64,000 bases of DNA, taken from Escherichia phage BF17. Positions 6,708 to 47,794 of this stretch are shown here, piece by piece. How positions within the stretch are numbered: the stretch's first letter is position 1; each line of letters starts with the position of its first letter. Where the stretch lies: the sequence record MW822008.1; one strand, written 5' to 3'. Made by a program: the position numbers and the translations under genes. The notes beneath the pieces are model-generated. The model did not search any database and was not told where the DNA came from. It worked only from the letters and a program-made list of their open reading frames with translations.

Positions 6708-7205
6708 ATGGCATTAAGATCAAAAGACTTCCTCTTCAAAAGAAAAACTAAAGATGGTTCATGGCAAGAATTTCCTGAATCAGATAGCTGGTATCCTGCT
6801 AACTTAGATTATCATTGGAACGAACAAACATTACCATTAGCTAGTGGCGGCTATTATGGTAGTACTACAGGATTACATACAATATCCTTTACCCTACGTA
6901 ACTTCATTGGTAGAATTTACGTACTCGCTACACTGGCAAGTAATCCATCTGACGATGATTGGTTCCCAATTAAATTTACCGAAAGCTGCAACTTCTATCT
7001 TGAATTTACTGATAATGTCATTCTTAACCCAAATGGTGGTGACCTTATTAGAGAACAAGGTACAACTGGTACATTCGCTGAAACCTTAACCGGAAACTTT
7101 ACCTATCTGAAAGTTGGTATTGACCGTGATTACATTAGCAAGTATCCATCTGATGTACAAAAAAGTTTAGCTGGTAAGTTAGAACAAATTTTAATTAACT
7201 ACTAA
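6708..7205 (+). CDS. Hypothetical protein (165 aa)
   Basis: Intact ORF with RBS-like aaaaggg upstream; first gene of a three-gene plus-strand operon that diverges from the fiber genes. Confidence 0.5.
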   Translation: MALRSKDFLFKRKTKDGSWQEFPESDSWYPANLDYHWNEQTLPLASGGYYGSTTGLHTISFTLRNFIGRIYVLATLASNPSDDDWFPIKFTESCNFYLEFTDNVILNPNGGDLIREQGTTGTFAETLTGNFTYLKVGIDRDYISKYPSDVQKSLAGKLEQILINY

Positions 7206-7214
7206 GGATTAGAA

Positions 7215-7823
7215 ATGAAATTAGAAACAGAACAACCAAAACTATTTGTTAAGGGTCATGTACTAATTACTGACGTTACTGATCCATCTAACCAAAAAAT
7301 CGTTTTGGATAAATCAAACGCAATTCACCCTGAAAATATGAGTACTGCTATTGCTAATGCGTTGGCTTATAATCAAGATAGTACTGGTATTCCTATTGGA
7401 TCTATTAGTGAGATGCGTTTTGGTAATGGTGGAACAGTAGTTTTGAGTACTGGTCGTATCACATACAAGAAACCACGCGTTACTTCTTTCGGTGGTCTAT
7501 ATTCTCAGACTTATCTGAAAAAAATCAACCCACGTATCTCTGCTGGTATTGATTCACAATATAACAACATTACAACTGTTCACATTCCAGGCCAAGCTTA
7601 CACTGATATTGTCTGTATTTGTACATTAGGTTTAGGTGAGCCATCTGACCAAGGTGTTAGCTCTGGTACTAGCATGGATGGGACATATGTATTTGACGAA
7701 TTGGGTTTATATACAAATGGTGATAGTGGTATTCCACTTACCCATATCATTTTTCACCCAGTTGAGAAAAGTGCTAACCGTGTTTTGCAAATCAAATACA
7801 CAGTTCGTGTCCAACTACAATAA
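7215..7823 (+). CDS. Hypothetical protein (202 aa), likely virion-associated
   Basis: RBS AAGGA 7 nt upstream; tightly packed between neighbours. Confidence 0.5.
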   Translation: MKLETEQPKLFVKGHVLITDVTDPSNQKIVLDKSNAIHPENMSTAIANALAYNQDSTGIPIGSISEMRFGNGGTVVLSTGRITYKKPRVTSFGGLYSQTYLKKINPRISAGIDSQYNNITTVHIPGQAYTDIVCICTLGLGEPSDQGVSSGTSMDGTYVFDELGLYTNGDSGIPLTHIIFHPVEKSANRVLQIKYTVRVQLQ

Positions 7824-7835
7824 TAAGGTGATGAT

Positions 7836-8936
7836 ATGAGTGTAAGTTATACAATTTATAGAAGTAATGGTAGCGTTTATGCTACCATTCCAAATAACGT
7901 AATATTAGGACCAAACCAACCTGGTAGTAACCCAGTACCGTTAAACTTTGCAGGTAGAAATAAAGTTGGTTACGGGCAAGCATGGAACGAAAACTTCCTC
8001 CACTTGGTTGAGAACTTCAGTGGGGCTACTGCACCTCGTGGTAACGTTAATGGTCAGATTTGGTACAGAAATACTGGCAACACTGGTGAACTACTTCTTG
8101 CATTAGTTGATAATGCTCGTCAACCAGTAGATACTGCATCTGAAGCTGACTGGGCATCTATCCCAATGATTTCAATTTTCAACACAGTACCAGATGGTGA
8201 AAATAGTATTATGGGTCGTATGGTTCTTACCAGCAATGGTGATTCCCTTCGTGTCCTAATGAAAAATAAAGAATGGCGTGAAATTCAAACATCTCGTCCT
8301 GAAAATAAAGAATACTCCACACTACTTGATATCAACTATGATACAGGTAAGAAATACATTGAATTTACACAAAGTAACAGTACTAAGCCATTAGCTTACT
8401 TCAATATGGGTGGCACTTCACAGGTTGATTCAAATAACTGGACAACATTCACAAATGGTACTGGGGTGTTTGAATTTGGTAGTAACTATTTTTATGAATT
8501 GAAAATTATGATTCGTGAAGTTAGTGATTCATCAGGTGAAATTGTTTCTCTTCCGTATAATTCAAAAACATTTTTCATTAAAGGTCAGTTCTATGTTGAT
8601 AACCAAGGTACATTTGTTCCTGGTTCAATTGGTGCAAGTCAGATTCCAGACCCACGTCGCATTACACAACTAGAATCAATCAAGGATGTAATTACCAGTA
8701 GTCGCCCTAATTGGGATGTATCTATGGTAATTAATGGTGTTGACCCAACTCTCCCAAATCCGAATGGTATTACAAAAGCGGATTACGAAAACTGGGTGGT
8801 TAACTCTCTTAACTCTAATAAAAACTTAGGGTTCCGCGTCGATGGTATAGTAAACAACCTTTCGGCGGGTGAGTCAGTTAAGCTTCAAGCATCTGTCCTA
8901 CTTAATATAACAGGTATCCCACTGATTGGGGTATAA
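7836..8936 (+). CDS. Hypothetical protein (366 aa), likely virion-associated
   Basis: RBS AAGGTGA upstream; followed by a terminator. Confidence 0.5.
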   Translation: MSVSYTIYRSNGSVYATIPNNVILGPNQPGSNPVPLNFAGRNKVGYGQAWNENFLHLVENFSGATAPRGNVNGQIWYRNTGNTGELLLALVDNARQPVDTASEADWASIPMISIFNTVPDGENSIMGRMVLTSNGDSLRVLMKNKEWREIQTSRPENKEYSTLLDINYDTGKKYIEFTQSNSTKPLAYFNMGGTSQVDSNNWTTFTNGTGVFEFGSNYFYELKIMIREVSDSSGEIVSLPYNSKTFFIKGQFYVDNQGTFVPGSIGASQIPDPRRITQLESIKDVITSSRPNWDVSMVINGVDPTLPNPNGITKADYENWVVNSLNSNKNLGFRVDGIVNNLSAGESVKLQASVLLNITGIPLIGV

Positions 8937-8940: not shown

Positions 8941-8972
8941 AAAAAAGGAGCCAATGGCTCCTTTTTTTGTTA
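8941..8972. terminator. Bidirectional intrinsic terminator at a convergence point
   Basis: aaaaaa-GGAGCCA-a-TGGCTCC-ttttttt between the plus operon (ends 8936) and the Nudix gene (ends 8970). Confidence 0.7.
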
Positions 8973-9434
8973 ATATCGATATGGTAAGCTGTTGACAAAC
9001 TGTGTACCTTGACGTATACTTTCCCACAATGAATAAAAATCCTTCATTAAATTTGCGTTGAGTAATGTGTTTTTTGCACCAGGATGTAACGGTTTAGGCC
9101 ATGAGCCAATCTTAACCCATGCATAACCAGAACTCTCATGATTTAAAGTAGGTACGAATTCATTTTCAACTACAATGACAAATGAATAGTATTTAAATTT
9201 ACCATTCTTAGTGCAGAACACATCAAATGGTATAATATCTATTATCGTTGGAATAGAATCACCTAGTTCTTCTTTAATCTCACGCATAAGACCCTGTAAA
9301 GGAGTTTCATTATACTCAAGCTTCCCACCAACAAATGCCCAGTTGTTAGAATACGTACTTCTTTCTGATCTCAAGTTTAACATCATGTGTCCAGTACTTT
9401 TAGATAAAAATATAGCACCTACTGCTTCATTCAT
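8970..9434 (-). CDS. nudE: Nudix hydrolase (T4 NudE-like)
   Basis: Canonical Nudix box GGKLEYNETPLQGLMREIKEELG (G-x5-E-x7-REuxEExGu); RBS GGAGGTG. Confidence 0.75.
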   Translation of the reverse strand: MNEAVGAIFLSKSTGHMMLNLRSERSTYSNNWAFVGGKLEYNETPLQGLMREIKEELGDSIPTIIDIIPFDVFCTKNGKFKYYSFVIVVENEFVPTLNHESSGYAWVKIGSWPKPLHPGAKNTLLNANLMKDFYSLWESIRQGTQFVNSLPYRY

Positions 9435-12325: not shown

Positions 12326-12353
12326 TTGACAAACGCAAAGAATGTGATATAAT
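12326..12353 (+). promoter_or_regulatory. Sigma70-type (early) promoter for the ClpA-like gene
   Basis: TTGACA (12326-12331), 16-bp spacer, TGaTATAAT extended -10 (12345-12353). Confidence 0.6.
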
Positions 12354-12391
12354 GTTTATTAATTAGAGTGACTACTCATTTAGGAGAATAC

Positions 12392-14680
12392 ATGAATCTT
12401 ACCCAATTGTTCAAAAAAAGCGACGAACTGGCAACTTCTCTGGGTCATACCTTCTTGACTATTGACCATCTAAGTGCTACAGTACTGACAATCGATAGCA
12501 TCAAAGCAGTGTTTGAGGATATGAACATCGATGCAGAGAAACTACACGGTCGTTTGATTGCATATCTGAAAAATACAGCATTCCCACATGCACCTAAAAG
12601 TGCTGATGGTGATGAAGCGAACCGCACATCACTTCTTGTGAACCGTGTAGTTCAGGAACTTTCTAAGAAATCAGTAATTGAGCAACTTAAACGTGATGAT
12701 TTCTCAATTGATGCTTATTTTGTACTGTTTGAGTGTTTGTCCTTCCCAAATACTGCACTAGAAGCAGCATTGCGTGAAGAGGGTATCACTTGTACTGAAG
12801 CAGCACGAACTCTTCAGAAGCACGTAGAAGCAATCGACAACGGAATTAACCTTCAAAGCATTAGTGATGAACCAACTGGGGAGAAAAAAGTGGCACAACA
12901 GCAACCATCGTCCAAACAAAAAGGTTTAGAAGATTACACCACTAACCTAACCGCACTTGCAAAAGAAGGTAAACTTGACCCAATGATTGGTCGCCAGAAA
13001 GAGCTTTCTGCACTGATTGAAACTCTGGCCCGTAAGACTAAGAAAAATGCTATCCTGACTGGTGAAGCTGGTGTTGGTAAAACGCAAATTATTGATGGTC
13101 TAGCACAGGCAATCGCTGATGGTGAAGTACCAGAGCATCTTAAAGATGTTGAAATTCTGTCTCTGAACGTAGGTGCACTGACTGCTGGTACTAAGTACCG
13201 TGGTGAGTTCGAAGAACGTATCGATAACCTACTAAAAGAACTGAAGAAACGTGAAAACACTATTGTGTTCATCGATGAAATCCATATTATGGTTGGTGCT
13301 GGTTCAGCAAGCAACGGTTCTATGGATATGAGCAACATGCTCAAACCTGCACTATCTCGTGGTGAGATTCGTGTAATCGGTGCAACAACTTACGATGAAT
13401 ATCGTAAAAACATCGAAAAAGATAGTGCACTAACTCGTCGTTTCATGAAAATTGATGTAGTTGAGCCAACAATTGATGAAACCCGTGCGATTGTGAATGG
13501 TTTGAAATCTACTTATGAAACTTTCCATAACGTAGAGTTCAGTACTGAAGCAATGGATGCAGTTATTACACTAAGTGATAAGTTCCTGAAGAACAAACAC
13601 TTCCCTGACAAAGCAATCGACCTAATGGATGCGGCAGCAGCGAAAGTACGTTCTCGTGAAACTGATGATAACATCATCACTGTTGCACTGATTCAAGAAG
13701 TTGTTGCAGGTATCGCAAACCTAGATATTAACGTGGTTGCTTGCACTGAAAGTGAACGTATGCGTAATCTACCAGATGCACTCCGTTCTCGTGTATACGG
13801 TCAAGAAGAAGCAGTACAGAAACTGGTTGATAACGTGATGGTAGCTCGTGCTGGTCTGCGTGATAAATCAAGTGTTCAAGGTGCATTCATGTTTGTTGGG
13901 CCATCTGGTACTGGTAAAACTGAAATTACCAAAGCACTGGCTGATGCAACTGGTTCTGAACTGATTCGTTTCGATATGTCCGAGTTTTCACAGGAACATA
14001 CTGTTGCTAAACTGATTGGTTCACCTCCAGGCTATGTTGGTCACGATTCTGGTAACGGTCTGCTACTCGACAAGATTGAGCAGTTCCCGAATGCAGTACT
14101 GTTGCTTGATGAAATCGAAAAAGCTGATCGTAAAGTACTACTAACCTTCCTACAGGTTCTGGACGAAGGACGTTTGACTGGTTCACAAGGTAAAACTGTT
14201 TACTTCAATAACGTAACTGTTATTATGACAACTAACCTTGGTGCAGCAGATTCAACCAAGCGTAGTATTGGGATGAGCGGTAGTGACACAGCACAAGATA
14301 AAGCGATTAAAGCATTCTTGCCACCTGAATTCATCAACCGTATCGATAGTATTGTGACATTCAAAGACCTAAGCAGCGAAGCGATTGACAGCATCATTGA
14401 TAAGTTCATGGGAAGTTTGAATGAACAAATCAAAGACCGCAAAGTTAAAGTTTCACTGACCAAAGCGGCACGTGAGTGGTTGGCAACAAATGGTGTTAAA
14501 GTTGGGATGGGTGCACGTCCAATGAAACGCACTATTGAGCAAAACATCCGTGTCCCACTAGCTAAAGAGATGTTGTGTGGTTCTCTGGTTAATGGTGGTA
14601 ACGTAACGTTTGATGTGATTGATGGTAAATTGGCTATCAAACCTAAACGAACTAAAGCAGTAGAAAAAGTTATTGCGTAA
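12392..14680 (+). CDS. clpA: ClpA-like AAA+ unfoldase (two nucleotide-binding domains, Clp N-domain, ClpP-docking loop)
   Basis: Start at ATG 12392 (RBS AGGAGA; the ORF track's 12368 is a GTG extension). Walker A GEAGVGKT (13061-13084) and GPSGTGKT (13899-13922); no ClpB-type middle domain; KRSIGMSG matches the ClpA IGL-type ClpP-binding loop (IGM at 14267-14275). Confidence 0.85.
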   Translation: MNLTQLFKKSDELATSLGHTFLTIDHLSATVLTIDSIKAVFEDMNIDAEKLHGRLIAYLKNTAFPHAPKSADGDEANRTSLLVNRVVQELSKKSVIEQLKRDDFSIDAYFVLFECLSFPNTALEAALREEGITCTEAARTLQKHVEAIDNGINLQSISDEPTGEKKVAQQQPSSKQKGLEDYTTNLTALAKEGKLDPMIGRQKELSALIETLARKTKKNAILTGEAGVGKTQIIDGLAQAIADGEVPEHLKDVEILSLNVGALTAGTKYRGEFEERIDNLLKELKKRENTIVFIDEIHIMVGAGSASNGSMDMSNMLKPALSRGEIRVIGATTYDEYRKNIEKDSALTRRFMKIDVVEPTIDETRAIVNGLKSTYETFHNVEFSTEAMDAVITLSDKFLKNKHFPDKAIDLMDAAAAKVRSRETDDNIITVALIQEVVAGIANLDINVVACTESERMRNLPDALRSRVYGQEEAVQKLVDNVMVARAGLRDKSSVQGAFMFVGPSGTGKTEITKALADATGSELIRFDMSEFSQEHTVAKLIGSPPGYVGHDSGNGLLLDKIEQFPNAVLLLDEIEKADRKVLLTFLQVLDEGRLTGSQGKTVYFNNVTVIMTTNLGAADSTKRSIGMSGSDTAQDKAIKAFLPPEFINRIDSIVTFKDLSSEAIDSIIDKFMGSLNEQIKDRKVKVSLTKAAREWLATNGVKVGMGARPMKRTIEQNIRVPLAKEMLCGSLVNGGNVTFDVIDGKLAIKPKRTKAVEKVIA

Positions 14681-14683
14681 AAA

Positions 14684-14715
14684 AGAAAAGGAGAGCAAAT
14701 GCTCTCCTTTTTGTT
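14684..14715. terminator. Bidirectional intrinsic terminator
   Basis: aaaa-AGGAGAGC-aaat-GCTCTCCT-ttttgtt between the clp gene (+) and the giant gene (-); almost the same sequence recurs at 60449-60480. Confidence 0.75.
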
Positions 14716-17700
14716 ATTTAACTTCTAATAGATTTTTAATGTCATTACCACTTATTTGCAAACTATCGGAGTAAACAGATAGTTCGATTGGATAACTGTT
14801 AACACTATAACGTTTTAGTAAATTAACTTTACCTAAGTTCAAGCCATTAAATGAATATGTCACATTCTCTTTAAAGTCGTGTTCTGCACTATACATTACC
14901 CCACGGAGTAAGTTATTTGCAAAACGTACTTCAACTTTTTCAAAACCAAGAGAAATAATATCATTCATACTTGCACCAGCACCAGATAGAACATTATTAG
15001 TAACACTATATGGACTAACTGAATCTGGTTGTGAAACATAAGTAGCATTTTCTTCACTGATAGCAGTAATGTTAGTTACTGTTCCACCAACTACACCAAT
15101 ATATGTATCACTAACTAGTGGATATGCATATTCCCATACCCCGTCAGCATTCAGTACTGGTTGAATAATACCAACATCATACTCGAACACGTTAATTTCC
15201 ACACTATCAGTCATTTTGGTTCTCACTAACTCACTAAGAACACCTGCACCAGTAATTGGTAAGTTATATCCGTTATCAATGGTAACACCATCAACTTCAA
15301 ATATCTCGTTAGACACTACCCAAACATCAACGTCATCTGGTGTAATTCCATCATTATAAGAACCACCGTATAGTGTTGTGTCGTAGAATACTTCATAGTT
15401 CATTGCGTCGATAGCATAATTTCTATTTGTTTCATACAACTTAACACCATCAACCAAGAATTCTGGATCAGCAAAGGTTCTAATACGAACGATGTTCAAT
15501 GCTAGAGGTATTGCTGGTTCATTCTGTTGTTGTTTAGTGATGTTATCATAACGAAGCACAACTCCAGTACTATCTAGTAGTTCTACAGTTCCGTTCGCAG
15601 TGTTTCTTACTGTGTACAAGGTTGGTGTGGTGTCAGTTTTGATTTTTGATACACTCAAGATGGTTTCCCATGCATTGTTTTGGTATCTCACATAATCTTC
15701 ACCATCAGTTGTGAATATCATAACCTTATCACCATCAGATAGGGTATTGTCAATTACTTCAGCTTCTGTATCACTAACAATTGATTTAATTTTATAGAAG
15801 TATTTTTCATCATACTTACTGTATGATTTACTAATATCATTTTCAATCTTAGCGTAAGAAGGAATACTAACAATTGCTTCTGTTGTTTTATAAGGGTTGA
15901 TAATAACCATACCTTCAGTTTTATATCTACTATTGTCTCTCAATTGAACTAGTGAAACACTATTGAATCCATAACCATCAACTGTGAAGCGAATCTGACC
16001 AATCTTTCTTCCTGATGGGTTAATATCAGAAATGTCGATTATGTACGGATCTACTTCGTCACCTTCAACTTCCCATTTTAACTCGGAAGTTTGTGATTCA
16101 AGTGCTAGGTTATCAAATGCATTCATATCATCGTAGTACTTAGCATCGGTGATGCTATCTAGGATGTGCTGATAATCACTGTACATTGGGTTATTTCTAT
16201 CAAGAGGTAAGTCATCAAGATTTATTTCTGCCAATTGAACTAGTTGACCGTCAGTTATGAATTTGTCTTCCATGAAATCATCAATGCTTTGGTCATCTGG
16301 GATACTCTCGTATACACCATTAACATTAACATAAACATATTTTCGTGGCATCATAGTAAATGCATGAATATCAATAGGCATTCTACTTAGTATTTCTTCA
16401 GCCTTTTCATAATGGTCGGTAGCATCTTTGTCATACAAACCACGCATACCGGACAATACATGAATTGCGTCATTGTAGAATCGTTGATTTCCATTTTCAT
16501 CTACATGGCGATATGAATAAACACCATATTCAACTTCAAGTATAATTCTAACTTCATCATCAGTTGCAGTAGTATTGTTTTCTTTAATTAAAGAAACATA
16601 CTTATTATACAACTCACTACTAACTTCAAAGTAACCAAAGTTATAATCAGTACTGGATGCATAACCAAACGGTAGTCTGGTACTTGGATTATCATCATAG
16701 GTTAACCCACTAAATCCACATCCAACCTCATCATGAATTACTTCATCATCTGCACCTGTGTACAATTTCAAACGGTTAGAGAGTGTGTTATACTGAACAT
16801 AATGATTTACGTCATTAAACATTTCATTTTGTGTTGATTCTTTATATACACGATTCAACGTTTCTGTGAATTCTGCGGTTGCTACCAAATCATCTGCATG
16901 GTCTGCATACCATTGGTTAACACCGTAAGCAATCCCTAGAGTTACGTTCAATTCTGGGTAATACAATTGCATCTGATAAGCAACCAATAGGTCGAAATCT
17001 TCATCACTGTATTCTGGGAATGTATATTTGTAACGTTGTAATTCAAAATTACTAACAACATCTTGTGCATTAGATTGATATTTCTTATTCACTTCTTCCA
17101 ATACATCAACACTTGCCAAATTATCATTTGGTTTACATTGAGTGTTGTCGTAGTGCATGATAACATCAATTTCTTGGAAACGGCGATTAGGTGTTACGAA
17201 ATCACTTGGCAATTCACCAACTTGCTCCCAACGTTGAGTTACCTCATTGAATTGAGCATATTCATAATCCCAAATGTCTTTTTCCGTTTTAACCCAAGTC
17301 CCATCTGCAAATATATAGCCATTAGGATCTAAATCATTACACAAACCTTTAATTAAATCATCATCTGAAGTTTTCTGTTCAATCTGGGAACGAATCTTAG
17401 TTCTATATGGTTTAACTTCTTCAAAGTACTCAACGATTTGATTAATCAAGTTGTCGTTGGAATAGTTCTGTACTAATGATTGTTCTAAACCTACAATATA
17501 AATGTAAGATGTTTTGAATACCCAATCAACAACGCTTTGTTCTACGTGAACATACTTAACCATATCAAACACAATTTCACTCTGATGTAAGTCGAATGAG
17601 TTCTTCAATAAAGCTAGTGCTTTACGAACGTTAATCTCACGATTACTCAACGAACCATTAGCATCACGAACTGTATAGTCAGCGTATAACATATCATTCA

Positions 17701-20700
17701 ATTCAACTGTACTATTTTCACGACCAATTGCTTTCCAGTAAACTGAATCACGTGATTGTGCTTTAATGTACAATGTCCAGATGCCATCAACATCTGTAAT
17801 TCTGATAATGTCACCAACTTGATAGTTCTTAGTGTTTGCATCTTCTAGGCTGGATTCTTGTGTATATGCAGTATTTTTATCGTATCCAATATCATACCAA
17901 TCTGCTAGTGACCAGTACTGGGTCATGTCCAATGAAGTTCCTAGTGCTTCAACATAGTCTGATTGTTTAATCATTTTCTGTTGACCTTCACCACGGTTTT
18001 CCAATGTAATGGTAACCACACTACCAGCACTTGATGGACTATTCATTAGATGAATATAACCATTAGCATCAATATGCACAAAATATACAGAGCTAGTTGA
18101 TAGTGGGGTAGGTAATACACCACTAGTACTTACTAGTACTGCGTCGTTTTCTTTGAACTTGTCACTTTCAGGTGCAATGACTAATTCACTATTGTAAGTT
18201 AGCACACGATATGATACTTCATTCGGGTTAACTTCAGTAGTTTTAACATTAAACACTTCGTCCATTAGAACAGTGTTAGTTGTTATATTCTGTGAGCGAT
18301 AATAGTTATTTGCACTTTCTACAAAGTTTCTACGAGCTTCAATTACATCTTGGAACCAAGTCTTATTAGAACCTAAACCGTTTGGTACTAAAGGATATAG
18401 TAAATCAATAACAGTTCCTGATTCAGTAGTTTCTTGACCAATCATAGAATTCCACATAGAAGTCCAGATTGATGGATTGAAGTTATAGCTATCACCTTCT
18501 TTACATAATTGATACTGGTCATGTTTAATAACTTCAGTATTATCCATGTAATAAGAAACAGTTAAAATACTTGTGTCATCGTTGACTTCAAATTGCATAT
18601 TACTTAGAATGAACGAGCTTTCATTGATTGGTGCAAACCAAGGAATGTTAAGCTGTGCTGGTTCTTTAATAATACGAGCAATATCAGTACAAGATTTAGT
18701 TCTGGAATGTAATGGTGGTACATAAATTGTATCACGAACCCAGAAATAGTATTTTGTAACATAAGTATCAGTTGTGCTATCATATTCTAAGAACGTACTA
18801 TAATTATCTTCCAATGCGGTTCCGCTTGGTAGGTACATAGTGTTGTTTTTATTTTTGTTAGCAACGTCTTTACAGTATTTGTCCCAGTTATATGGTTCAA
18901 CTGGTGAACATACCCATTCAAGAACATCAACAGTACTGTGCGGTAACAATCTACCCCAGTTATAACGTTTATATTCATTTGTTGCATCAACATCCACATT
19001 ACCGTCAGCATCATAGATTGCACGAGTGTAATCTAAGTAGAAAGCAGTGCTGGTGTTCCACCAAACCTGACCAACTTTATCAGCACCCCATGCTTGAATC
19101 AATTCACCATTGCTGTTGTATTGTGCTGGGTCAACTGGAGATGTGTAGGTAACGTTCTGCATCGCTGCACCAGGAATAACACCGTTGATTGGGTCAAACA
19201 CGTTTAGGTACAACGCAGTAATGTTAGTACGTTCATCATATGTAGTTGGACGGTCAAACAAAGTACTTTGTGGAGCTTTAAAACTATATTTTCTGTCAAT
19301 GTATTCCTGACGCATCTCTTCAGTACTGAATCGTGAAACATAACGATACAAGCGTGGGCGAGTATCAGGATCAGTGAAGTCAATAGTGATTGAAGTGTCA
19401 AACGGAACTACCATAACTCTAGGGTCATTACCCGCAGTATAATATTGACTTTCTATAGTCAATGTATCTGGCATAAAGTTAGTTTCATCAACAAAGTAAT
19501 AATAATCACCATCATTTAGTGGGATATCATCACTTAGAGTTACTTTACAGAATTGTTCTGCATATACATCGGTATTTTCAATTGGAACGATAGAGAGCAT
19601 CTCAACTTCAGTGTCTACTAGTTCGAAAATATTCCACAAATCATTACCATCTTTAAACATCCATACAGAATCTGGGATTTCACCACTGTTATTCATATAA
19701 TTGATACGATCATTATATGCAGTACTGAAATCTTTAGTAACGTATGAAATTTCATCTAGTGTTACAGGACCAATGTCTGGAAGTTGGATATTCTCACTTC
19801 TTCCACTACGCATTGGGAATGAAAACTTACCATTTGGACGAGTAATCCAGCGTGAGTCAACCCCTTGTTCACCGTAATAAACAATACCATTACCAGTACC
19901 ATTTGATGTAGCATTAACATCAAACGAAACCATCTGTGGTTGTTGTTTAAATTGGTCATTGATTAGTTTAAATTGTAGATTTTTCTTACCATTGATATTA
20001 CCATAAGTACCAATCTTAAATGCCCATTCCTGAAGTGCTTTATATTCATCAGTGTCGTAAGATTTAGAAACGCGTAGTACTTTTTCCATTACTTGGTTAG
20101 TACCTTTGTCATGAATGAATCCTTTATAGAAATCAACACGACTAACATCACTACTAATCATACGTTGTAGATAATCACGAGTTTGATAGCCAATCAAGTG
20201 ATTTGATAACTCTTGAAGCTGAACATCACTCACAGGAGTTTCACTATTATAATATAATTCAAAATCAGTTACTAATTTTTCAAATGATGGTAAAGTTCCT
20301 GCTTCTAGGATAATGAAACCAGGTGCTTGTAGGCGACCAGTCCATGACCCAGTAATGTAACCATACATTTTAATCAATTCTTGAATAGCACCATAAGTTG
20401 GTTGGTAAATGTAATCACCAAAGATAGTTTTATCATCAAAAACAACTGCGTGTTCATATGAACTTAGGCTCAAACGAATCAACGCCATACGTTTTTGTGA
20501 TTCAGATGTAGTTCTCACTGTGAATACGTTACCGATACGCGAAGTTTCGATTTCATATTGACGGATGCCTTGGTTTTCATCATCGAGTAGTGACCAAACA
20601 CCACCACTATTCTGTGTAACAGATTGAACTGAACCAAAATCCGCACCAAATTTAGCATTAGCTGCACTTGGAGTACAGGAGATGAACTCACCAGTACTTA

Positions 20701-23700
20701 AATTATTCTGACTCCAAATAACAAAGTCTTTAGCAATAGTTGTCCAGTCTTGTTGAGTACCACTATCATTTACATCTTCAAAAATCCAGCCATGTTCTTT
20801 TAGATATTCACCATATCCACAAATGAAAGTATAAACTTCTTGGTATGTATTGAATATTTTACCATATTCTAATGTACCTTCAGATTTCCATTCATTGTAA
20901 TGAACAACAGTTCTGTCTTCCAATTTAAGAGTTACTTTTCTTCCATTTTTAACTGGAATTTTATATTTAAATTTAGCACCAACTAAATCATAACCATCAA
21001 TTTGATATGCACTACCATTCCAAGTAATTTTTACTGCACTCATTTGCTCATCGCGAATGTTATTGGAACGAACTAGACCGATAGTTTGGTTTTCTTGTGA
21101 AATCAAACCGAAAGATTTAGCAGTGAATGTCAATTGGTCTGCTTTAGTAAAGCCACCAATTTTGTGAGCGACATTGACATAAGAAGAACGAACAACGTCA
21201 CCGTATTTGGTGGTAATGTTCTTATTCTGATACATCAAATAGTCACTAACAAACATTTGATAACCGATAGTACGGGTGTTTTTCTCACCATGTACTAATG
21301 TAGTACTGTCAAAGTTTAGACGCTTACGGGTTTCACCATAAAGGAACTGTGAACCATCAGTATAAACTGGTTTAAGGTTATCATTACGGGTATCCCAGTA
21401 ATAGTTTGCAAACTGTGCTGGTTTTGCTTTGTATAGAAGAAGCATTTGGTCATAAGCAAACATCGCAGTGTTCATGTAAGTGAATTCCATGTCACCCATG
21501 TCACCATAAGACCACGGTTCTGCACGATGATCTAAATTACCACTAACAAGACCTAAAACTTCAGGTGCAATATACTCAACTTCACAAATATCAATACCAG
21601 TACTGGTTTTCTCGCCAGTCTTAGTGATTTTAAATGGCTGTACACCGAAACGCTTGTATTTGTCATATTGACCACGGCGTTCACCTGACAAAATAGTACC
21701 AGTACTGCTATCACCGATAGTACCATCAATATCCCACAATCCACTTGGGACCAAATCACCATTTTCATTCATTACTAGTGCTTCATACACATAAACAACA
21801 TCACCCTCACGTTCACCAACTTGAACTGCGGTTGGTTCGTATTCTTGGTTCCACCAAGTAGGACGTTGAGAGAAGCCCATCATTTCCCACGGATGGGTTG
21901 CTGGACGATATGTGCCATATTGGTCAGTATAGATTGCACGCCATGAACCACGAGCAGGAATTTCAGTACGTTGACCATCAACAACATAATAACTACCAGT
22001 ATAGTTCCAAGTTCTCCAGTTATTTGCATCATAATCATGAGTACTGTTACTAATGCCATTGGTTGCTGTGAAGTTAATGTAACCACGTAGTAATAGAGTT
22101 TTCTTTTCTTCTGCACTATAATCAGTACCAGTGAAATATGGAGTTGGGAATAGGTCTTCACTGTTTAGTACTGGTTTATAATCAATATCCTTGAAAGTAA
22201 GATCAATACTATTAAAGATACGATTTTCCAATTCAAAAACTACGTCATCCATTTTATCAACACCATTGATAACACGGTATGCTTTTGAAATAATACCAGT
22301 ATGACTGATATTATAACAGCTAGATTTACTACCAGCAGTTAAGAATGTTGCTTTTTGTGGTGTATAAGCTTGCAAAATACCCAAGAACTGTGGAGTTGGT
22401 GGGACAAATGCACGAATAAACCCAGCAGTGCTTGCAACGTTGTCATAGTAGAATGGGAATGTACTATCACGTCCCATATTAATAGCTGTTAGAATCGCAT
22501 CTACGATGTTTGATGCACTATTACCAAGAAAAGCACTTGGGTCTTCTTCATACAAACGAAGCATTTGAGTGTTGAACTTGTTAATGAAGCGGAAGTATTC
22601 TGCTTGCATAAACATGATTGATTCAAACAAATCAATATCTTCATTAGCGGTATGTGCCATTAGTGGTAACATGGACGCTTCGTTTTGAATAATTTTAGTG
22701 CCTACACCATTATTAACCAAACCAGCAGCCAAACGTTCTTCGTAATTGTTAAAGTCATCAGCAGAACCAGATGTAATATTCTTTTGAATAATATCTTGGA
22801 AGTGCAGGGTGTAATCACCTTGGTTGATGTATTCAATGTTTGAATTATATGGGTTATTTTGTAGATTAATTGGAACTTCATATGCACCCAACTCTTTATT
22901 AGGAGTGATAGTGCTACTATAAGTTCTGATTTGTACAACAGAATCTTCATCCAAATCAACAGAGCTATCAATTGTAATACTTTGTACTTGATTATTAACT
23001 ACAGTTTTTGTGTATTCTTTTATTTCCACACCATCAACAACTAGTTCGATAATATCATCAGAATTATCTAGTACTTTTTGTGCCAATTCAAATGTATGAT
23101 TGTACTTAACGCTTTGTACCCCATCACCAACGATAACATGCCAATCAAGATATGTTTCACGTTCTGCTTTGTAATATTGATAAGTTCTGTCAACTTCAAT
23201 TACATAAGCATACATTCCTTCAACTGGGTCTTTGAAACTTTCCATGTCATAAACAGTACTGAACACGCGGAACATTACTGTACGTTCAACCTGTGGAGTT
23301 TGTTTAACATATTGTTTGGAGTATTCAGTACTACGAACCCAATCAGTTTCTAGGTTCATTGTATTACCTTCACCAATTACGTTATAGTAATATAGTCCAT
23401 CAATTTCAACTTCCACACCCAAATGCTCGTAAGTATAACGAGTTGATTGTAGGAAATTCTCATATGTGTAATAATTGTAATCACCTAGTTCAATATTATA
23501 ACCATAAACGCTATCAGTTGCATAATTATAGTTAATTTTAAAACCAAATAGTGAAGAACCAGTAAAAGTACTTGATGGATAGGTAGTAGTGTTGTTTAGT
23601 TTAACACCATTACGGTCATACAATTGGAATTGTGGAAATACGTTCACAGAAGTTTTAGACTGTGCTTGAATCCAATGAGAACCGTCCCAATACATGGAAC

Positions 23701-24685
23701 TGTTACCAAATTCATTACCTTTGATAATAAGAACTACGTCACCATCTTGTGGTTCACCACTCGGACGGCTTTCAGATTCTTCGTCTGGATCTAATGCTAG
23801 ACCATACACACGTGTTCCATCTTGCATACGTTTAACATATACTTTATAAATTCGGTTGTTTTCACCATTGTTACCAATACTGGTGAAAAGAATACGCATA
23901 CCATCTTGTGGAATAATACCATCAATACGTATACCGCTGTTAATATCTTTTTGTACGATATCTTCAGGTTTAATAATATCAGAGAACAAATCAACTGTCC
24001 CACGGAATTTAGTACCGTAGTTCATTAGTTCGATATTTTTATTGTATTCGATAATTGGTGCACGAGCACGAACAAAACGGGAATCTTGCATTAGTTCTTC
24101 AGTTAGGATAGTACCATCTTCTAAAGTTTCACCTAATGTGTACCAGAAGTTTTGTAGTGACCAAGTGTTACCATTTTCTGCACCACGTTCCATTACAATA
24201 TAATCTGGAGTTGTGATATTATAGCTATTCTTGGAATCCCATAGGTATGAACTGTAGTTGTTCATTTTATTTGGGTTAATTGGTGGGGTCCATGAATAGA
24301 ACTTACCATTAAACAAACGGCTTTCATTTTCGGTTAGTGCACCGTAATGATTCATATAGCCAACTAGATCATCATAAAATTGAATTGAACGAATGCTGGA
24401 GTCATCATTTCTTGAGACATACGCAGTGGACAACTGATATAGTTGACGTGCGACTGTTGACTCGTGTAAGAAGATGTTCCCTGCTGCTGCCGGAGAACCC
24501 ATGTCACCAATGTAGCCGTCAACTAATTCGTTTTCAGCCGGATTAAACCATTGTTGGATAACATCATCACTGACTTTCTGAATATCTTCTAAGCCTTGCA
24601 TCCACTCAGGCAATCTTTTTATGAAAAGCTTCTTCTGTACTGCTTCAGCCATCTGTGTAGGTTGAAACTTAAAATTATTAGTCAT
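14714..24685 (-). CDS. Giant virion protein (~3,320 aa), baseplate or tail-fiber associated by synteny
   Basis: Single uninterrupted ORF. Preferred start ATG 24683-24685 (MTNNFKF..., RBS GGAG 9 nt upstream); the ORF-track start 24715 lacks an RBS. Follows the gp6-like gene in the baseplate operon. Confidence 0.7.
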   Translation of the reverse strand: MTNNFKFQPTQMAEAVQKKLFIKRLPEWMQGLEDIQKVSDDVIQQWFNPAENELVDGYIGDMGSPAAAGNIFLHESTVARQLYQLSTAYVSRNDDSSIRSIQFYDDLVGYMNHYGALTENESRLFNGKFYSWTPPINPNKMNNYSSYLWDSKNSYNITTPDYIVMERGAENGNTWSLQNFWYTLGETLEDGTILTEELMQDSRFVRARAPIIEYNKNIELMNYGTKFRGTVDLFSDIIKPEDIVQKDINSGIRIDGIIPQDGMRILFTSIGNNGENNRIYKVYVKRMQDGTRVYGLALDPDEESESRPSGEPQDGDVVLIIKGNEFGNSSMYWDGSHWIQAQSKTSVNVFPQFQLYDRNGVKLNNTTTYPSSTFTGSSLFGFKINYNYATDSVYGYNIELGDYNYYTYENFLQSTRYTYEHLGVEVEIDGLYYYNVIGEGNTMNLETDWVRSTEYSKQYVKQTPQVERTVMFRVFSTVYDMESFKDPVEGMYAYVIEVDRTYQYYKAERETYLDWHVIVGDGVQSVKYNHTFELAQKVLDNSDDIIELVVDGVEIKEYTKTVVNNQVQSITIDSSVDLDEDSVVQIRTYSSTITPNKELGAYEVPINLQNNPYNSNIEYINQGDYTLHFQDIIQKNITSGSADDFNNYEERLAAGLVNNGVGTKIIQNEASMLPLMAHTANEDIDLFESIMFMQAEYFRFINKFNTQMLRLYEEDPSAFLGNSASNIVDAILTAINMGRDSTFPFYYDNVASTAGFIRAFVPPTPQFLGILQAYTPQKATFLTAGSKSSCYNISHTGIISKAYRVINGVDKMDDVVFELENRIFNSIDLTFKDIDYKPVLNSEDLFPTPYFTGTDYSAEEKKTLLLRGYINFTATNGISNSTHDYDANNWRTWNYTGSYYVVDGQRTEIPARGSWRAIYTDQYGTYRPATHPWEMMGFSQRPTWWNQEYEPTAVQVGEREGDVVYVYEALVMNENGDLVPSGLWDIDGTIGDSSTGTILSGERRGQYDKYKRFGVQPFKITKTGEKTSTGIDICEVEYIAPEVLGLVSGNLDHRAEPWSYGDMGDMEFTYMNTAMFAYDQMLLLYKAKPAQFANYYWDTRNDNLKPVYTDGSQFLYGETRKRLNFDSTTLVHGEKNTRTIGYQMFVSDYLMYQNKNITTKYGDVVRSSYVNVAHKIGGFTKADQLTFTAKSFGLISQENQTIGLVRSNNIRDEQMSAVKITWNGSAYQIDGYDLVGAKFKYKIPVKNGRKVTLKLEDRTVVHYNEWKSEGTLEYGKIFNTYQEVYTFICGYGEYLKEHGWIFEDVNDSGTQQDWTTIAKDFVIWSQNNLSTGEFISCTPSAANAKFGADFGSVQSVTQNSGGVWSLLDDENQGIRQYEIETSRIGNVFTVRTTSESQKRMALIRLSLSSYEHAVVFDDKTIFGDYIYQPTYGAIQELIKMYGYITGSWTGRLQAPGFIILEAGTLPSFEKLVTDFELYYNSETPVSDVQLQELSNHLIGYQTRDYLQRMISSDVSRVDFYKGFIHDKGTNQVMEKVLRVSKSYDTDEYKALQEWAFKIGTYGNINGKKNLQFKLINDQFKQQPQMVSFDVNATSNGTGNGIVYYGEQGVDSRWITRPNGKFSFPMRSGRSENIQLPDIGPVTLDEISYVTKDFSTAYNDRINYMNNSGEIPDSVWMFKDGNDLWNIFELVDTEVEMLSIVPIENTDVYAEQFCKVTLSDDIPLNDGDYYYFVDETNFMPDTLTIESQYYTAGNDPRVMVVPFDTSITIDFTDPDTRPRLYRYVSRFSTEEMRQEYIDRKYSFKAPQSTLFDRPTTYDERTNITALYLNVFDPINGVIPGAAMQNVTYTSPVDPAQYNSNGELIQAWGADKVGQVWWNTSTAFYLDYTRAIYDADGNVDVDATNEYKRYNWGRLLPHSTVDVLEWVCSPVEPYNWDKYCKDVANKNKNNTMYLPSGTALEDNYSTFLEYDSTTDTYVTKYYFWVRDTIYVPPLHSRTKSCTDIARIIKEPAQLNIPWFAPINESSFILSNMQFEVNDDTSILTVSYYMDNTEVIKHDQYQLCKEGDSYNFNPSIWTSMWNSMIGQETTESGTVIDLLYPLVPNGLGSNKTWFQDVIEARRNFVESANNYYRSQNITTNTVLMDEVFNVKTTEVNPNEVSYRVLTYNSELVIAPESDKFKENDAVLVSTSGVLPTPLSTSSVYFVHIDANGYIHLMNSPSSAGSVVTITLENRGEGQQKMIKQSDYVEALGTSLDMTQYWSLADWYDIGYDKNTAYTQESSLEDANTKNYQVGDIIRITDVDGIWTLYIKAQSRDSVYWKAIGRENSTVELNDMLYADYTVRDANGSLSNREINVRKALALLKNSFDLHQSEIVFDMVKYVHVEQSVVDWVFKTSYIYIVGLEQSLVQNYSNDNLINQIVEYFEEVKPYRTKIRSQIEQKTSDDDLIKGLCNDLDPNGYIFADGTWVKTEKDIWDYEYAQFNEVTQRWEQVGELPSDFVTPNRRFQEIDVIMHYDNTQCKPNDNLASVDVLEEVNKKYQSNAQDVVSNFELQRYKYTFPEYSDEDFDLLVAYQMQLYYPELNVTLGIAYGVNQWYADHADDLVATAEFTETLNRVYKESTQNEMFNDVNHYVQYNTLSNRLKLYTGADDEVIHDEVGCGFSGLTYDDNPSTRLPFGYASSTDYNFGYFEVSSELYNKYVSLIKENNTTATDDEVRIILEVEYGVYSYRHVDENGNQRFYNDAIHVLSGMRGLYDKDATDHYEKAEEILSRMPIDIHAFTMMPRKYVYVNVNGVYESIPDDQSIDDFMEDKFITDGQLVQLAEINLDDLPLDRNNPMYSDYQHILDSITDAKYYDDMNAFDNLALESQTSELKWEVEGDEVDPYIIDISDINPSGRKIGQIRFTVDGYGFNSVSLVQLRDNSRYKTEGMVIINPYKTTEAIVSIPSYAKIENDISKSYSKYDEKYFYKIKSIVSDTEAEVIDNTLSDGDKVMIFTTDGEDYVRYQNNAWETILSVSKIKTDTTPTLYTVRNTANGTVELLDSTGVVLRYDNITKQQQNEPAIPLALNIVRIRTFADPEFLVDGVKLYETNRNYAIDAMNYEVFYDTTLYGGSYNDGITPDDVDVWVVSNEIFEVDGVTIDNGYNLPITGAGVLSELVRTKMTDSVEINVFEYDVGIIQPVLNADGVWEYAYPLVSDTYIGVVGGTVTNITAISEENATYVSQPDSVSPYSVTNNVLSGAGASMNDIISLGFEKVEVRFANNLLRGVMYSAEHDFKENVTYSFNGLNLGKVNLLKRYSVNSYPIELSVYSDSLQISGNDIKNLLEVK

Positions 24686-24722
24686 TTTTGGACTCCATAT
24701 AATTCGTTCATTCATTTGATTT

Positions 24723-27700: not shown

Positions 27701-28227
27701 CGTTTAACCGGATTACCAAACTGGTTAGTACTGACAAATGAACTGTTCATAACTAGAATGAAGTTCTCATACCAGTTTGTGTCCATTGGGTCATTCCAAC
27801 GAATGATTTTATCCTTAAGTGATTCGTTAAAACTATTACGAACGTCTTGGTTGGTTTTTATTTCTGTTAATTTAGCAACTGCACGACCTGGATATGAACG
27901 GCGTGGAGAGTAAGAAATCATTTTTGCGAGTTTCAGTACTGATGCACGACGAGTAGCAGTATCTAGGAAGTTCTCACGAGTGTTTAAATCCATACGGAAT
28001 GCTAAGTTCTGTCCTAGCATAGAAATGGTATCTAGAATAAAGATGAACTGGTCGTTTTCGATCCAGTCGTTGAAAGAATCTGGGTACGTAGCACGTAGAT
28101 AGTCAATCATACTTTGACGGATTGTATCAAAGTCATAAGCTGTTAGATTGATCTTATAAAAGCTTTCATATACTTGAGTCCAATCTTCACCAGCGTATAA
28201 ATTTGATTGCCTTTTTTGTTGTGACAT
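24766..28227 (-). CDS. Baseplate wedge protein, gp6/Baseplate-J-like (1153 aa)
   Basis: RBS AAAGGAA; N-terminal region (YDFDTIRQSMIDYLRATYP...LDTISMLGQNLAFRMD) resembles the gp6/J N-terminus as I recall it; lies downstream of the gp25-like gene as in conserved baseplate modules. Confidence 0.6.
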   Translation of the reverse strand: MSQQKRQSNLYAGEDWTQVYESFYKINLTAYDFDTIRQSMIDYLRATYPDSFNDWIENDQFIFILDTISMLGQNLAFRMDLNTRENFLDTATRRASVLKLAKMISYSPRRSYPGRAVAKLTEIKTNQDVRNSFNESLKDKIIRWNDPMDTNWYENFILVMNSSFVSTNQFGNPVKRIDINGVSRQLYRMNTIPMSAPSLPFTATVNGESMTFEVVNPDITAVGVEERHPEPQEQKYIVYQNDGNGFSSPNTGFFVYFVQGTLTYQDYQYNIREENRIQDINVDNINETDVWVQEINEDGIVRTKWTKVPSMESIAYNTVNRQLKTIFAVTTRDKDQITIKYPDSRSGVVPRGTYRVWYRVSNGETYNIKTSEIQNKSVKYTYRTKTQSSYESSTLDIRFTLQYESDRAQSAETIEQIKARAPQMYYTQNRFVNGEDYNIAPLSLGNTVLKSKAINRLYSGQSRFIDINDPTGKYQNTDVFSDDGSMYQENTQFNKSLQLPTTKTNASIVIDNIQPLIGENAVIQRYQAYPPNTIGIEIQQKWTPEYNSNYATNTYGRIMGATGNVFGNYQVGTLIKFSNAGTTVWASIVSVLDNGYYVLSTSVSSNMQAQEYILQYRTRFNSVEVQAIAAMLDKKTDFVIIHDKETTSWIPLEISTDEDTISYNGNEVLVMINIKYTAETWEFDANGVEYVFVGGDKVRFYFVSSKKITDISTGSVQSDKIEILSSNTTSNSNAGLTSNIDFQIYDTIQQENGYLDGSRVVITSENVDSNGIPLEPNQFREIVPNWTGEDSVKYGGILVFQENDDFTISVLSLPNDTFTILDSSWAYTMDQALAETNAYKRSEFVRNNAIRSTTLSGIYSKGSGFIVGFNYDGKYYFIEQTVGNNNDRLNQLIENLTYSDDTTAATPELAFYRAIVNIGTNADVNQKLDYYGYKDVTSQYTVKTNARTGIDFHWKHYAPDDNRIDPSRTNLIDMYVLTNSYKTEVDVWLKNGTQGNMPKPPTSVELKDIFKEVEQKIVISDSIIWHSAEYLPLFGASAAEDYKADFKVVKLPNSTMSDDEIRQNVVALTNEYFNVDNWDFGESFYYTDLCTYIHSQLGRHISTIVIVAQNPNSKFGSLFEIPSRSDQIFLSTASVDNVQIVNSLAKSNINIGS

Positions 28228-29246: not shown

Positions 29247-29254
29247 TATTTATA
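29247..29254 (-). promoter_or_regulatory. T4-type late promoter TATAAATA (minus strand) for the endolysin gene
   Basis: Exact TATAAATA in the minus orientation, preceded by the TTTCAGTACT block seen at other late promoters; an AGGAA RBS follows. Confidence 0.5.
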
Positions 29255-47786: not shown

Positions 47787-47794
47787 TATAAATA
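47787..47794 (+). promoter_or_regulatory. T4-type late promoter TATAAATA for the scaffold gene
   Basis: Exact TATAAATA ~48 nt upstream of ATG 47842. Confidence 0.5.

Follow-up and report, generated by a model that had tools for sequence, protein, structure and literature searches.

The gene analyzed here is already known as an annotated core gene of the RaK2/121Q-like jumbo phages, and the conservation of a ClpA-like gene across Rak2-like phages has been remarked upon previously (PMC6102473). The orthologues 121Q gp581, RaK2 ORF069, GAP32/CBB_235 and phAPEC6 gp246c are annotated "ClpA-like" and, together with those of Ecwhy_1 and WPEC5, share 61–99.6% identity with the present protein. They are alike in length, domains, genomic slot, strands and promoter type, and essentially do not differ except for a tripeptide in some of them. 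Two distant jumbo phages, PA5oct and Atu_ph07, possess the same trio of Clp genes with ClpA beside tail genes, and differ by a canonical IGF tripeptide and by a DnaJ gene located directly upstream.

Among the bacterial proteins, E. coli ClpA (1ksf, 6w1z and 7uiv; ClpAP/ClpAPS) exhibits the same arrangement of an N-domain followed by the D1 and D2 modules with no middle domain, the same motifs and the same docking loop register, with a TM-score of 0.88–0.89 over D1-D2. It differs in overall sequence (~39% identity) and in the loop, which reads IGLIHQ in E. coli ClpA and IGMSGS in the phage protein; the N-domains of the bacterial relatives are ~18% identical to that of the phage. ClpC of Firmicutes and Actinobacteria and ClpB/Hsp104 share the class-1 Hsp100 double AAA+ architecture and yield strong sequence and fold matches, but contain a middle domain that is absent in the phage protein. 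ClpB also lacks the ClpP-docking loop. AAA+ proteases encoded by phages have received very little study so far, and a literature search on the function of phage ClpA, ClpP or ClpS found no experiment.

Genomic context

The analyzed window, a 64,000-nucleotide stretch of the Escherichia phage BF17 genome, derives from an Asteriusvirus-like jumbo phage and is 99% identical to WPEC5, fEgEco12 and Ecwhy_1. The ClpA-like protein is 99.6% identical to annotated proteins of EC.P1, WPEC5, Ecwhy_1 and fEgEco12, whereas the closest bacterial ClpA is only ~40% identical; the protein belongs to a diverged phage clade. The gene occupies a slot in the order NUDIX, gp15-like, structural, clpA, giant structural protein that is common to 121Q, phAPEC6, RaK2, CBB and XaC1. 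This shared position indicates an old core gene rather than a recent acquisition, and contradicts the preliminary description of the locus as an accessory cassette.

Reading frame and transcription signals

The whole feature (12326–14715) is bounded by the −35 hexamer on one side and the end of the terminator on the other. The program-made list of open reading frames gives a plus-strand frame at 12368–14680 with a GTG start and 770 amino acids. The start favored here is the ATG at 12392, a biologically sensible choice in view of the Shine-Dalgarno motif AGGAG read off the sequence at 12379–12383 (plus strand), 5 nucleotides upstream; an AGGAG motif also precedes the annotated clpA start of 121Q. 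The predicted coding sequence thus spans 12392–14680 on the plus strand, from ATG to TAA, and comprises 762 amino acids plus the stop codon.

A sigma-70-type promoter is present on the plus strand at 12326–12353, consisting of TTGACA, a 16-nucleotide spacer with the TG of an extended −10 element, and TATAAT. It matches the consensus at 12 of 12 positions and is one of three perfect sigma-70 sites in the 64-kb window, compared with 0.24 expected. Sigma-70-like promoters occupy the equivalent position upstream of clpA in 121Q, RaK2, CBB, XaC1, PA5oct and Atu_ph07. At the 3′ end, a bidirectional intrinsic terminator hairpin (14685–14712; 12-bp stem, 4-nucleotide loop, T-runs on both strands) was called on both strands and separates clpA from the convergent minus-strand gene for a 3333-residue virion protein; the record of phage G17 carries an annotated terminator at the corresponding site. 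The 762-residue frame, the near-consensus promoter and the gene's own bidirectional terminator were all features of the preliminary description and are borne out. Its statement that clpA is the sole plus-strand gene in ~30 kb holds among ORFs of at least 100 amino acids, but over a shorter span, 8970–35346 (~26 kb); three plus-strand structural ORFs are located at 6708–8936.

Judged solely by its promoter type, clpA is probably expressed early. The T4 late-promoter motif TATAAATA shows no enrichment in the window (5 observed, 7.1 expected) and therefore yields no argument on the timing of clpA, and the main texts searched for the temporal expression of PA5oct ClpA contained nothing usable.

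Domain architecture

The TIGR02639 ClpA model matches the protein end to end (residues 3–741 on model positions 5–733 of 734, 751.7 bits), although it misses the equivalog cut-offs of both TIGR02639 (993.15 bits) and PRK11034 (646 bits versus 1350), above which a protein is taken to share the function of bacterial ClpA. The ClpB model TIGR03346 scores lower than the ClpA model and matches in two pieces. Similarly, E. coli ClpA (1ksf) aligns in a single continuous stretch (residues 17–741 on 20–734, E = 1.6e-177), whereas the ClpB and ClpC alignments are each split into two separate stretches, which indicates that the coiled-coil middle domain, inserted in ClpB and ClpC between the large and small subdomains of D1, is missing. 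The length of 762 residues is close to the 758 of E. coli ClpA, with no insertion relative to it. Pfam identifies AAA (221–341), AAA_lid_9, AAA_2 (497–654) and ClpB_D2-small (660–739). The protein is thus ClpA-like and not a ClpB disaggregase, as originally proposed.

The N-terminal domain (residues 1–150; 12392–12841, plus strand) is Clp_N-like and all-helical, and is followed by a disordered linker at approximately residues 151–185. The Pfam Clp_N match is marginal, covering only one repeat of this double-repeat domain at 22 bits with a cut-off of 20.7. Although the sequence match is weak, the domain is spanned by the TIGR02639 and 1ksf alignments, and its helices are modeled by AF2 with pLDDT values of 60–90, while the linker at 157–175 falls below 50; together these support the N-domain assignment made earlier. 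It is the fastest evolving part of the protein, with a mean identity within the clade of 47% versus 69–74% for D1 and D2.

The D1 AAA+ module (residues 186–440; 12947–13711, plus strand; Pfam AAA and AAA_lid_9) contains the Walker A motif GEAGVGKT (residues 224–231, 13061–13084), the Walker B motif FIDEIH (13268–13285), the pore loop KYRG and the RR arginine fingers at residues 349–350. The D2 module (residues 441–745; 13712–14626, plus strand; Pfam AAA_2 and ClpB_D2-small) contains the Walker A motif GPSGTGKT (residues 503–510, 13898–13921), the Walker B motif LLLDEIEKA (14099–14125), the pore loop GYVG, an NRID finger, the GARP sensor-2 and the D2-small domain. Both Walker A motifs had been reported before; the Walker B motifs and arginine fingers, the loss of which would have spoken against the preliminary description, are likewise present. 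Among 120 homologues, the ATPase and pore motifs of both modules are invariant or nearly so. Foldseek comparison of the AF2 model with the ClpA chains of ClpAP complexes yielded TM-scores of 0.88–0.89 at 46–48% identity, and 757 columns were aligned with full-length 1r6b. Our best explanation of the locus includes the prediction that its product is an active AAA+ unfoldase of the ClpA type, assembled as a hexamer with two rings.

The putative ClpP-docking loop

The tripeptide Ile626-Gly627-Met628 (14267–14275, plus strand) occupies the same register as Ile617-Gly618-Leu619, by which E. coli ClpA docks onto ClpP: in the alignment to 1ksf and 6w1z, the phage sequence SIGM coincides with Ser616–Leu619. 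The numbering of the E. coli ClpA residues at the ClpP contact follows bioRxiv 10.1101/820209. The loop is flexible, as manifested by AF2 pLDDT values below 50 at residues 626–629. The preliminary description of an intact ClpP-docking loop is upheld in that IGM is found exactly at the IGL position and not outside the ClpP-binding loop. It is not upheld for the residues that follow, as Ile620, His621 and Gln622 of E. coli ClpA, which contact the ClpP pocket, Arg192 and Glu26, are replaced by Ser, Gly and Ser, and the third residue of the tripeptide is Met.

ClpP-dependent unfoldases (ClpA, ClpX and ClpC) carry the signature [LIVM]-G-[FL] on a flexible loop that projects from the base of their last AAA+ module, and at this exact register the phage orthologues vary widely, with conservation far below that of the ATPase motifs. 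The tripeptide is IGM in BF17 and 121Q, IGV in RaK2 and LGM in CBB, and other orthologues exhibit LGL, MNM, MSM, IGG or IGA; even close relatives differ, as IGM and LGL variants are both present. Most lineages nevertheless keep a hydrophobic-Gly-hydrophobic loop, and the deep branches PA5oct, Atu_ph07 and XaC1 retain the canonical I/VGF. If every phage depended on ClpP docking, the occurrence of IGG, IGA or M-S/N-M in some orthologues would be surprising.

ClpP and ClpS in related phages

When the 64-kb window was screened by tblastn for homologues of ClpP and ClpS as well as of the HslV-like and second ClpP-like proteins, noise alone was returned (E ≥ 0.25); as noted in the preliminary description, the window has no ClpP-like ORF, and it has no ClpS-like ORF either. 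However, the gene is not "inserted alone", since the closest sequenced relatives (Ecwhy_1, 121Q and others) have, at other genomic sites, genes for ClpP, for a further and divergent ClpP-like protein, and for a protein with a ClpS domain. The lack of clpP in the window is thus uninformative with regard to dependence on host ClpP.

The 231-residue ClpP of Ecwhy_1 and 121Q scores 153 bits with TIGR00493 (positions 4–189 of 192) and matches Pfam CLP_protease at 1.3e-41; it has preserved both the axial loop at its N terminus and the Ser-His-Asp triad. All RaK2-like relatives have a gene for a ClpS-domain protein of 177–181 residues. For GAP32_314, the match to ClpS structures is at 1.5e-6. The Asteriusvirus ClpS-like protein lacks a Pfam ClpS match and has ClpS structures as its only PDB matches, at E = 0.4–0.7; it matches GAP32_314 at 3e-31, so that its assignment is by transitive homology only. 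For two further 121Q proteins, gp473 (the second ClpP-like protein) and gp475 (HslV-like), all family matches are sub-threshold.

The clpA, clpP and clpS genes co-occur in every RaK2-like lineage, with nearly equal counts of phage records per genus, and all three are present in PA5oct and Atu_ph07. In most lineages the identities of ClpA and ClpP drop together (92.6/95.7, 75/70, 54/46 and 41/34%), which suggests co-inheritance; an exception is the Atu_ph07 ClpP, which is unusually near to bacterial ClpP, with a canonical pocket and 63% identity to E. coli ClpP. In the enterobacterial branch both partners are altered. The ClpA loop reads IGM, IGV, LGM, MNM or otherwise and carries I620S and H621G, and ClpP is changed at its pocket and contact residues (Y60T/V/S, L114G, F112L and R192P/A/E/D). 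Nine paired genomes revealed no clean one-to-one covariation between the ClpA tripeptide and the ClpP pocket residues, only a joint shift at the level of branches. Compared with E. coli ClpP, the likely phage partner is diverged, with a remodeled pocket and a C-terminal extension of ~20 residues.

Proposed function and alternatives

The data are best accounted for by a conserved core ClpA unfoldase that is expressed separately from the virion genes and likely feeds a phage-encoded ClpP, and we consider it probable that the two, together with ClpS, constitute a phage-owned protease of the infected cell. Host sigma-70 RNA polymerase would transcribe clpA alone, probably early or at least apart from the surrounding virion genes. 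By means of the KYRG and GYVG pore loops, ClpA would then unfold proteins and thread them into the phage ClpP peptidase, onto which it may dock by the IGM loop, with the ClpS-domain protein probably serving as an adaptor on the ClpA N-domain. The main departure from the preliminary description is that ClpA does not appear to be a lone subunit relying on host ClpP. The variable docking tripeptide, combined with a phage ClpP pocket that has diverged from that of E. coli, fits phage–phage pairing better than the capture of host ClpP. Several observations count against a phage protease: the docking tripeptide is far less conserved than the ATPase motifs and shows no simple covariation with the ClpP pocket, the ClpP and ClpS-domain genes are ~85 kb from clpA in the sister genomes and share no operon with it, the Asteriusvirus ClpS assignment is indirect as described above, and mass spectrometry of virions recorded ClpP for PA5oct and, on the strength of a single peptide, for CBB. 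Neither the phAPEC6 nor the CBB virion proteome contains ClpA itself, although the products of neighboring genes were detected; on the basis of these two proteomes of relatives, it stays outside virions.

A more elaborate version, which we put forward tentatively, envisages a complete ClpS-ClpA-ClpP machine whose loop and pocket have co-diverged to become orthogonal to host ClpAP, and which, switched on early by the consensus sigma-70 promoter, would destroy defined host proteins (e.g. defense or housekeeping proteins) or run a phage-specific degron code. Such a working system, free of cross-talk with the host, would represent a viral proteolysis system for cell takeover as well as a natural case of a re-coded unfoldase–peptidase docking interface.

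That ClpA acts independently of ClpP in virion morphogenesis, for example by keeping the 3333-residue virion protein or tail/baseplate parts assembly-competent together with phage DnaJ-like and GroES-like proteins, seems rather unlikely. In all RaK2-like phages examined clpA adjoins tail/baseplate genes, and in PA5oct and Atu_ph07 it is next to tail proteins, with the DnaJ gene immediately upstream; the GroES homolog mentioned in the preliminary description is indeed present in the window, as a GroES-like Cpn10 at 59364/59427–59729. The weak conservation of the tripeptide (down to IGG, IGA and MSM), compared with the invariant ATPase motifs, points in the same direction, and translocase or assembly roles have been suggested by Iyer et al. 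2021. On the other hand, transcription from a separate sigma-70 promoter on the strand opposite the late genes implies that clpA is not co-transcribed with them, the loop remains hydrophobic-Gly-hydrophobic in most lineages and canonical in the deep ones, and the gene is found strictly in company with those for phage ClpP and ClpS. In addition, the middle domain of disaggregases serves their cooperation with DnaK, and ClpA-type proteins, including this one, are devoid of it.

In the model suggested by the preliminary description, the phage ClpA would use IGM to dock onto the ClpP tetradecamer of its E. coli host and thereby redirect host proteolysis; this could happen instead of or besides use of the phage ClpP. 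The exact IGL register of a hydrophobic-Gly-hydrophobic tripeptide, the early-type promoter and the abundance of host ClpP during infection all agree with it, yet we regard it as improbable and as less parsimonious than phage–phage pairing. The phage lineage has its own intact ClpP and would not need the host enzyme, and the contact residues Ile620, His621 and Gln622 are replaced. Moreover, phages infecting E. coli, Klebsiella and Salmonella differ in the tripeptide (IGM, LGL, IGV and MNM) while the ClpP pocket is essentially identical across these hosts, so that the loop seems unconstrained by the host pocket.

Finally, although jumbo phages hold many host-like accessory genes, it is very improbable that clpA is an unimportant host-derived remnant kept through drift, given that its catalytic residues are invariant over a clade of 54–100% identity (>110 database clusters) and down to 40% in PA5oct and Atu_ph07, that no bacterial ClpA is closer than ~40%, and that conservation extends to the gene's position, its promoter and its terminator.

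Phage ClpP and head maturation

Some records label the phage ClpP as a head-maturation protease, which we reject as its sole role. The protein can be aligned with genuine ClpP from end to end, axial loop included, at 34–36% identity, and scores 153 bits with TIGR00493 versus 51 with the ClpP-related head-maturation model; typical phage ClpP-like head proteases are just 26–32% identical to E. coli ClpP over ~60–80% of the length of the latter. Furthermore, phAPEC6 encodes a separate T4-type prohead protease (gp227c), which indicates that ClpP is not required for head maturation.

Organization and conservation of the clpA gene

The clpA open reading frame is listed at 12368..14680 (+). Its preferred start is the ATG at 12392 (+), with AGGAG five bases before it, yielding a product of 762 amino acids; the 121Q annotation uses the equivalent start. 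The upstream promoter (12326-12353, +) comprises TTGACA, a 16-nt spacer with TG and TATAAT, matching the consensus at 12/12 positions, and is one of three perfect sigma-70-type sites in the 64-kb window, compared with 0.24 expected. A terminator hairpin at 14685-14712 (both strands; 12-bp stem, T-runs on each side) lies four bases past the clpA stop and separates the gene from a convergent 3333-aa open reading frame (14714-24715, -). Between 8970 and 35346 (~26 kb), clpA is the sole plus-strand open reading frame of at least 100 aa. The coordinates, promoter, hairpin and strand isolation reported in the preliminary description were thus all recovered.

The same description regarded clpA as an accessory cassette inserted alone, a view contradicted by the related genomes. 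The DNA of the clpA region is 99% identical to that of Escherichia phages WPEC5, fEgEco12 and EC.P1, ~99% identical to Ecwhy_1 and others, and 83% identical to 121Q and PBECO4 (both Asteriusvirus). The slot is alike in the five genomes compared (121Q, phAPEC6, RaK2, CBB and XaC1), in the order NUDIX, gp15-like tail completion protein, ~500-aa structural protein, clpA on the opposite strand and ~3300-aa virion protein, and a sigma-70-like promoter precedes clpA in 7/7 genomes inspected. Because both the slot and the promoter recur, clpA is an old core gene with a separate transcription unit rather than a recent insertion. In PA5oct and Atu_ph07, which carry distant orthologues, clpA adjoins tail genes and DnaJ is directly upstream. 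ClpA has already been described as highly conserved among most Rak2-like phages (PMC6102473); the gene itself is known and annotated, and its novelty is low.

Family, domains and fold of the clpA product

Profile searches and structure matches uphold the proposed ClpA-type identity. The Pfam search returned AAA, AAA_lid_9, AAA_2 and ClpB_D2-small, together with a single, marginal Clp_N repeat. The NCBIfam ClpA model matches end to end and outscores ClpB, ClpV, ClpK and ClpG, with a score of 751.7 bits that is below the equivalog cut-off of 993. The best solved-structure match is E. coli ClpA (E=1.6e-177), in an unbroken alignment of 17-741 on 20-734, whereas the ClpB and ClpC structures align in two separate stretches, which indicates that the middle domain is absent. 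In the AlphaFold2 model (mean pLDDT 79.7) the N-domain is helical, residues 157-175 make up a disordered linker, and confidence is low in a loop at 626-629. With this model, Foldseek identified ClpA chains from ClpAP complexes (TM 0.88-0.89, 46-48% identity) and full-length ClpA 1r6b (757 columns, 39% identity).

The protein retains two Walker A and two Walker B motifs, the pore loops KYRG and GYVG, the arginine fingers (RR and NRID) and sensor-2 (GARP), and in an alignment of 120 homologues these motifs are invariant or nearly so. The complete ATPase motifs and the upstream promoter agree with the earlier prediction of an active unfoldase expressed from its own promoter. Orthologues of the phage clade are 54-100% identical and form >110 clusters in the protein database; below them is an identity gap, with bacterial ClpAs next at ~40%.

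Phage-encoded ClpP and ClpS-like proteins

ClpP and ClpS were not found in the 64-kb window, yet both are encoded by this genome type, so the gene is not the lone one it had been taken for. With E. coli ClpP as tblastn query, matches were obtained in 121Q and Ecwhy_1 (36% identity, 90% of the protein covered), at L002:5944-6639 (121Q gp464) and L003:6944-7639 (Ecwhy_1), sequence extracts outside the window. In 121Q, clpP is ~84 kb from clpA. The phage ClpP (231 aa) covers positions 4-189 of 192 of TIGR00493 and matches many ClpP structures full-length, N-terminal axial loop included; the Ser-His-Asp triad is retained in 9/9 phage ClpP orthologues aligned. Head maturation was rejected as its sole role, since in phAPEC6 a distinct prohead protease of the T4 type is encoded.

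The 121Q clpP block is non-structural, and Ecwhy_1 is arranged identically. It also contains gp473, a very divergent second ClpP-like protein, and the HslV-like gp475 (L002:10000-11532), as well as gp457, a 75-aa DnaJ-type zinc-finger protein (L002:1000-1227). Family matches for these three are sub-threshold only; a ClpP1/ClpP2-type hetero-complex is conceivable.

An E. coli ClpS query found homologues in PA5oct, Atu_ph07, Phosso, GAP32 and Yersinia phages, and the GAP32 ClpS-like query found an orthologue of 177-181 aa in 71/71 RaK2-like records, including Ecwhy_1, WPEC5, WPEC3, Turkey3 and 121Q (gp48). GAP32_314 matches ClpS structures at 1.5e-6; the Asteriusvirus protein does so weakly (E=0.4-0.7) and has no other PDB matches. 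The Ecwhy_1 protein (181 aa; L018:972-2654, outside the window) has a ~60-aa N-terminal extension, and its gene is flanked by one for a phage homologue of IF3 and one for a KTSC-domain protein that carries the annotation 'DnaJ-like'. Match counts of ClpA, ClpP and the ClpS-like protein per host genus are almost identical.

The putative ClpA-ClpP interface

In E. coli, ClpA residues I617, G618, L619 and I620 insert into a ClpP pocket formed by L23, L48, F49, A52, Y60, Y62, I90, M92, F112, L114 and L189, and H621, Q622 and R614 touch ClpP R192 and E26 (Lopez et al., bioRxiv 10.1101/820209). SIGM of the window protein (aa 625-628) aligns in register with S616-I617-G618-L619. The docking loop, previously considered intact, is only partly so: the tripeptide is in place, but I620, H621 and Q622 are replaced by S629, G630 and S631.

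Among the 120 homologues the tripeptide varies while the ATPase motifs stay fixed. It is IGM in BF17 and 121Q, IGV in RaK2, LGM or MGM in the GAP32/CBB group and MNM, MSM or MSI in the 7t3 group; LGL, IGA, IGG, LGG, VGF, TGM, TAI and IAG also occur. Bacterial ClpAs of the alignment carry IGF or MGF, the distant PA5oct and Atu_ph07 orthologues IGF, and XaC1 VGF. When the ClpPs of RaK2-like phages are compared with the E. coli protein, several pocket and contact positions differ: Y60 is replaced by T/V/S, F112 by L, L114 by G and R192 by P/A/E/D. Position 82 is variable, and there is a conserved C-terminal extension of ~20 aa (...GIILGPRNEEGKYLVKRRGGVEEWV). In contrast, Atu_ph07 pairs a canonical ClpP pocket with the canonical IGF, so that loop and pocket have both changed on one branch. 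Clean residue-level covariation between ClpA loop and ClpP pocket was not seen. The ClpP of Ecwhy_1 and 121Q combines a complete triad with an altered IGL/ADEP pocket (Y60T, L114G, R192P).

The tripeptides differ among phages infecting E. coli, Klebsiella and Salmonella, although it is established that the ClpP pockets of these hosts are nearly the same. Together with the joint remodelling, this favours, without proving, a pairing of ClpA with the phage ClpP; the loops of some orthologues (IGG, IGA, MSM) look ill-suited to docking.

Proposed function

The reading we prefer, with moderate confidence, is that the clpA product serves as the ATPase in a ClpS-ClpA-ClpP protease that the phage itself encodes. 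A hypothetical further step, a viral Clp protease orthogonal to that of the host, is what would hold real promise here. A ClpP-independent morphogenesis chaperone is unlikely. Jumbo-phage ClpA and ClpX have been listed in the literature as candidates for translocases or chaperones of assembly (PMC7824862). Docking on host ClpP, with which the in-register tripeptide is compatible, is less likely still, and the picture of a solitary gene obliged to rely on the host enzyme fails because the relatives' genomes encode ClpP with an intact triad. No functional data on these phage Clp proteins were found in the literature.

Two virion proteomes are without ClpA: in that of phAPEC6, gp246c is absent and gp245 and gp248 were detected, and in that of CBB, CBB_235 is absent and 233, 234, 236 and 237 were detected. 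In PA5oct, neighbouring proteins bear an ESI-MS/MS tag and ClpA does not. ClpA thus acts within the infected cell. ClpP, unlike ClpA, is tagged by virion ESI-MS/MS in PA5oct (EST35_0272, L010), and CBB ClpP (CBB_104) gave one peptide in virions, which is odd given that ClpA was never detected there.

Other features of the window

A gp5-like baseplate hub that includes a lysozyme domain (29267-31930, -), an SbcC-like AAA_23 protein (37258-39405, +), a T4-type portal (gp20; 44155-45891, +) and a family B DNA polymerase (54856-57861, +) place the window among the core structural and replication genes of a jumbo phage that is distantly T4-like. The GroES homologue noted previously is confirmed as a GroES-like Cpn10 (59364-59729, +; Pfam 2.1e-16), whose match begins at residue 23 and fits the start proposed at 59427. 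The Pfam search of the 3333-aa protein gave no domain at E<=0.001; mass spectrometry shows its orthologues phAPEC6 gp245 (381.9 kDa) and CBB_236 to be virion proteins. This giant structural protein of unknown fold invariably adjoins clpA in RaK2-like phages. A NUDIX/MutT hydrolase (8970-9434, -) lies inside the tail-gene block, in the same place in 121Q, RaK2, CBB and XaC1.

The two other perfect TTGACA-N-TATAAT sites are at 27418-27444 (-), within a 1153-aa baseplate-wedge-like open reading frame (24766-28227), and at 50288-50316 (+), 36 nt upstream of the open reading frame 50352-51458. The T4 late-promoter motif TATAAATA shows no overall enrichment, with five copies in the window; three of these, at 29247-29254 (-), 47787-47794 (+) and 48996-49003 (+), are 18-48 nt upstream of the open reading frame starts 29229, 47842 and 49048.
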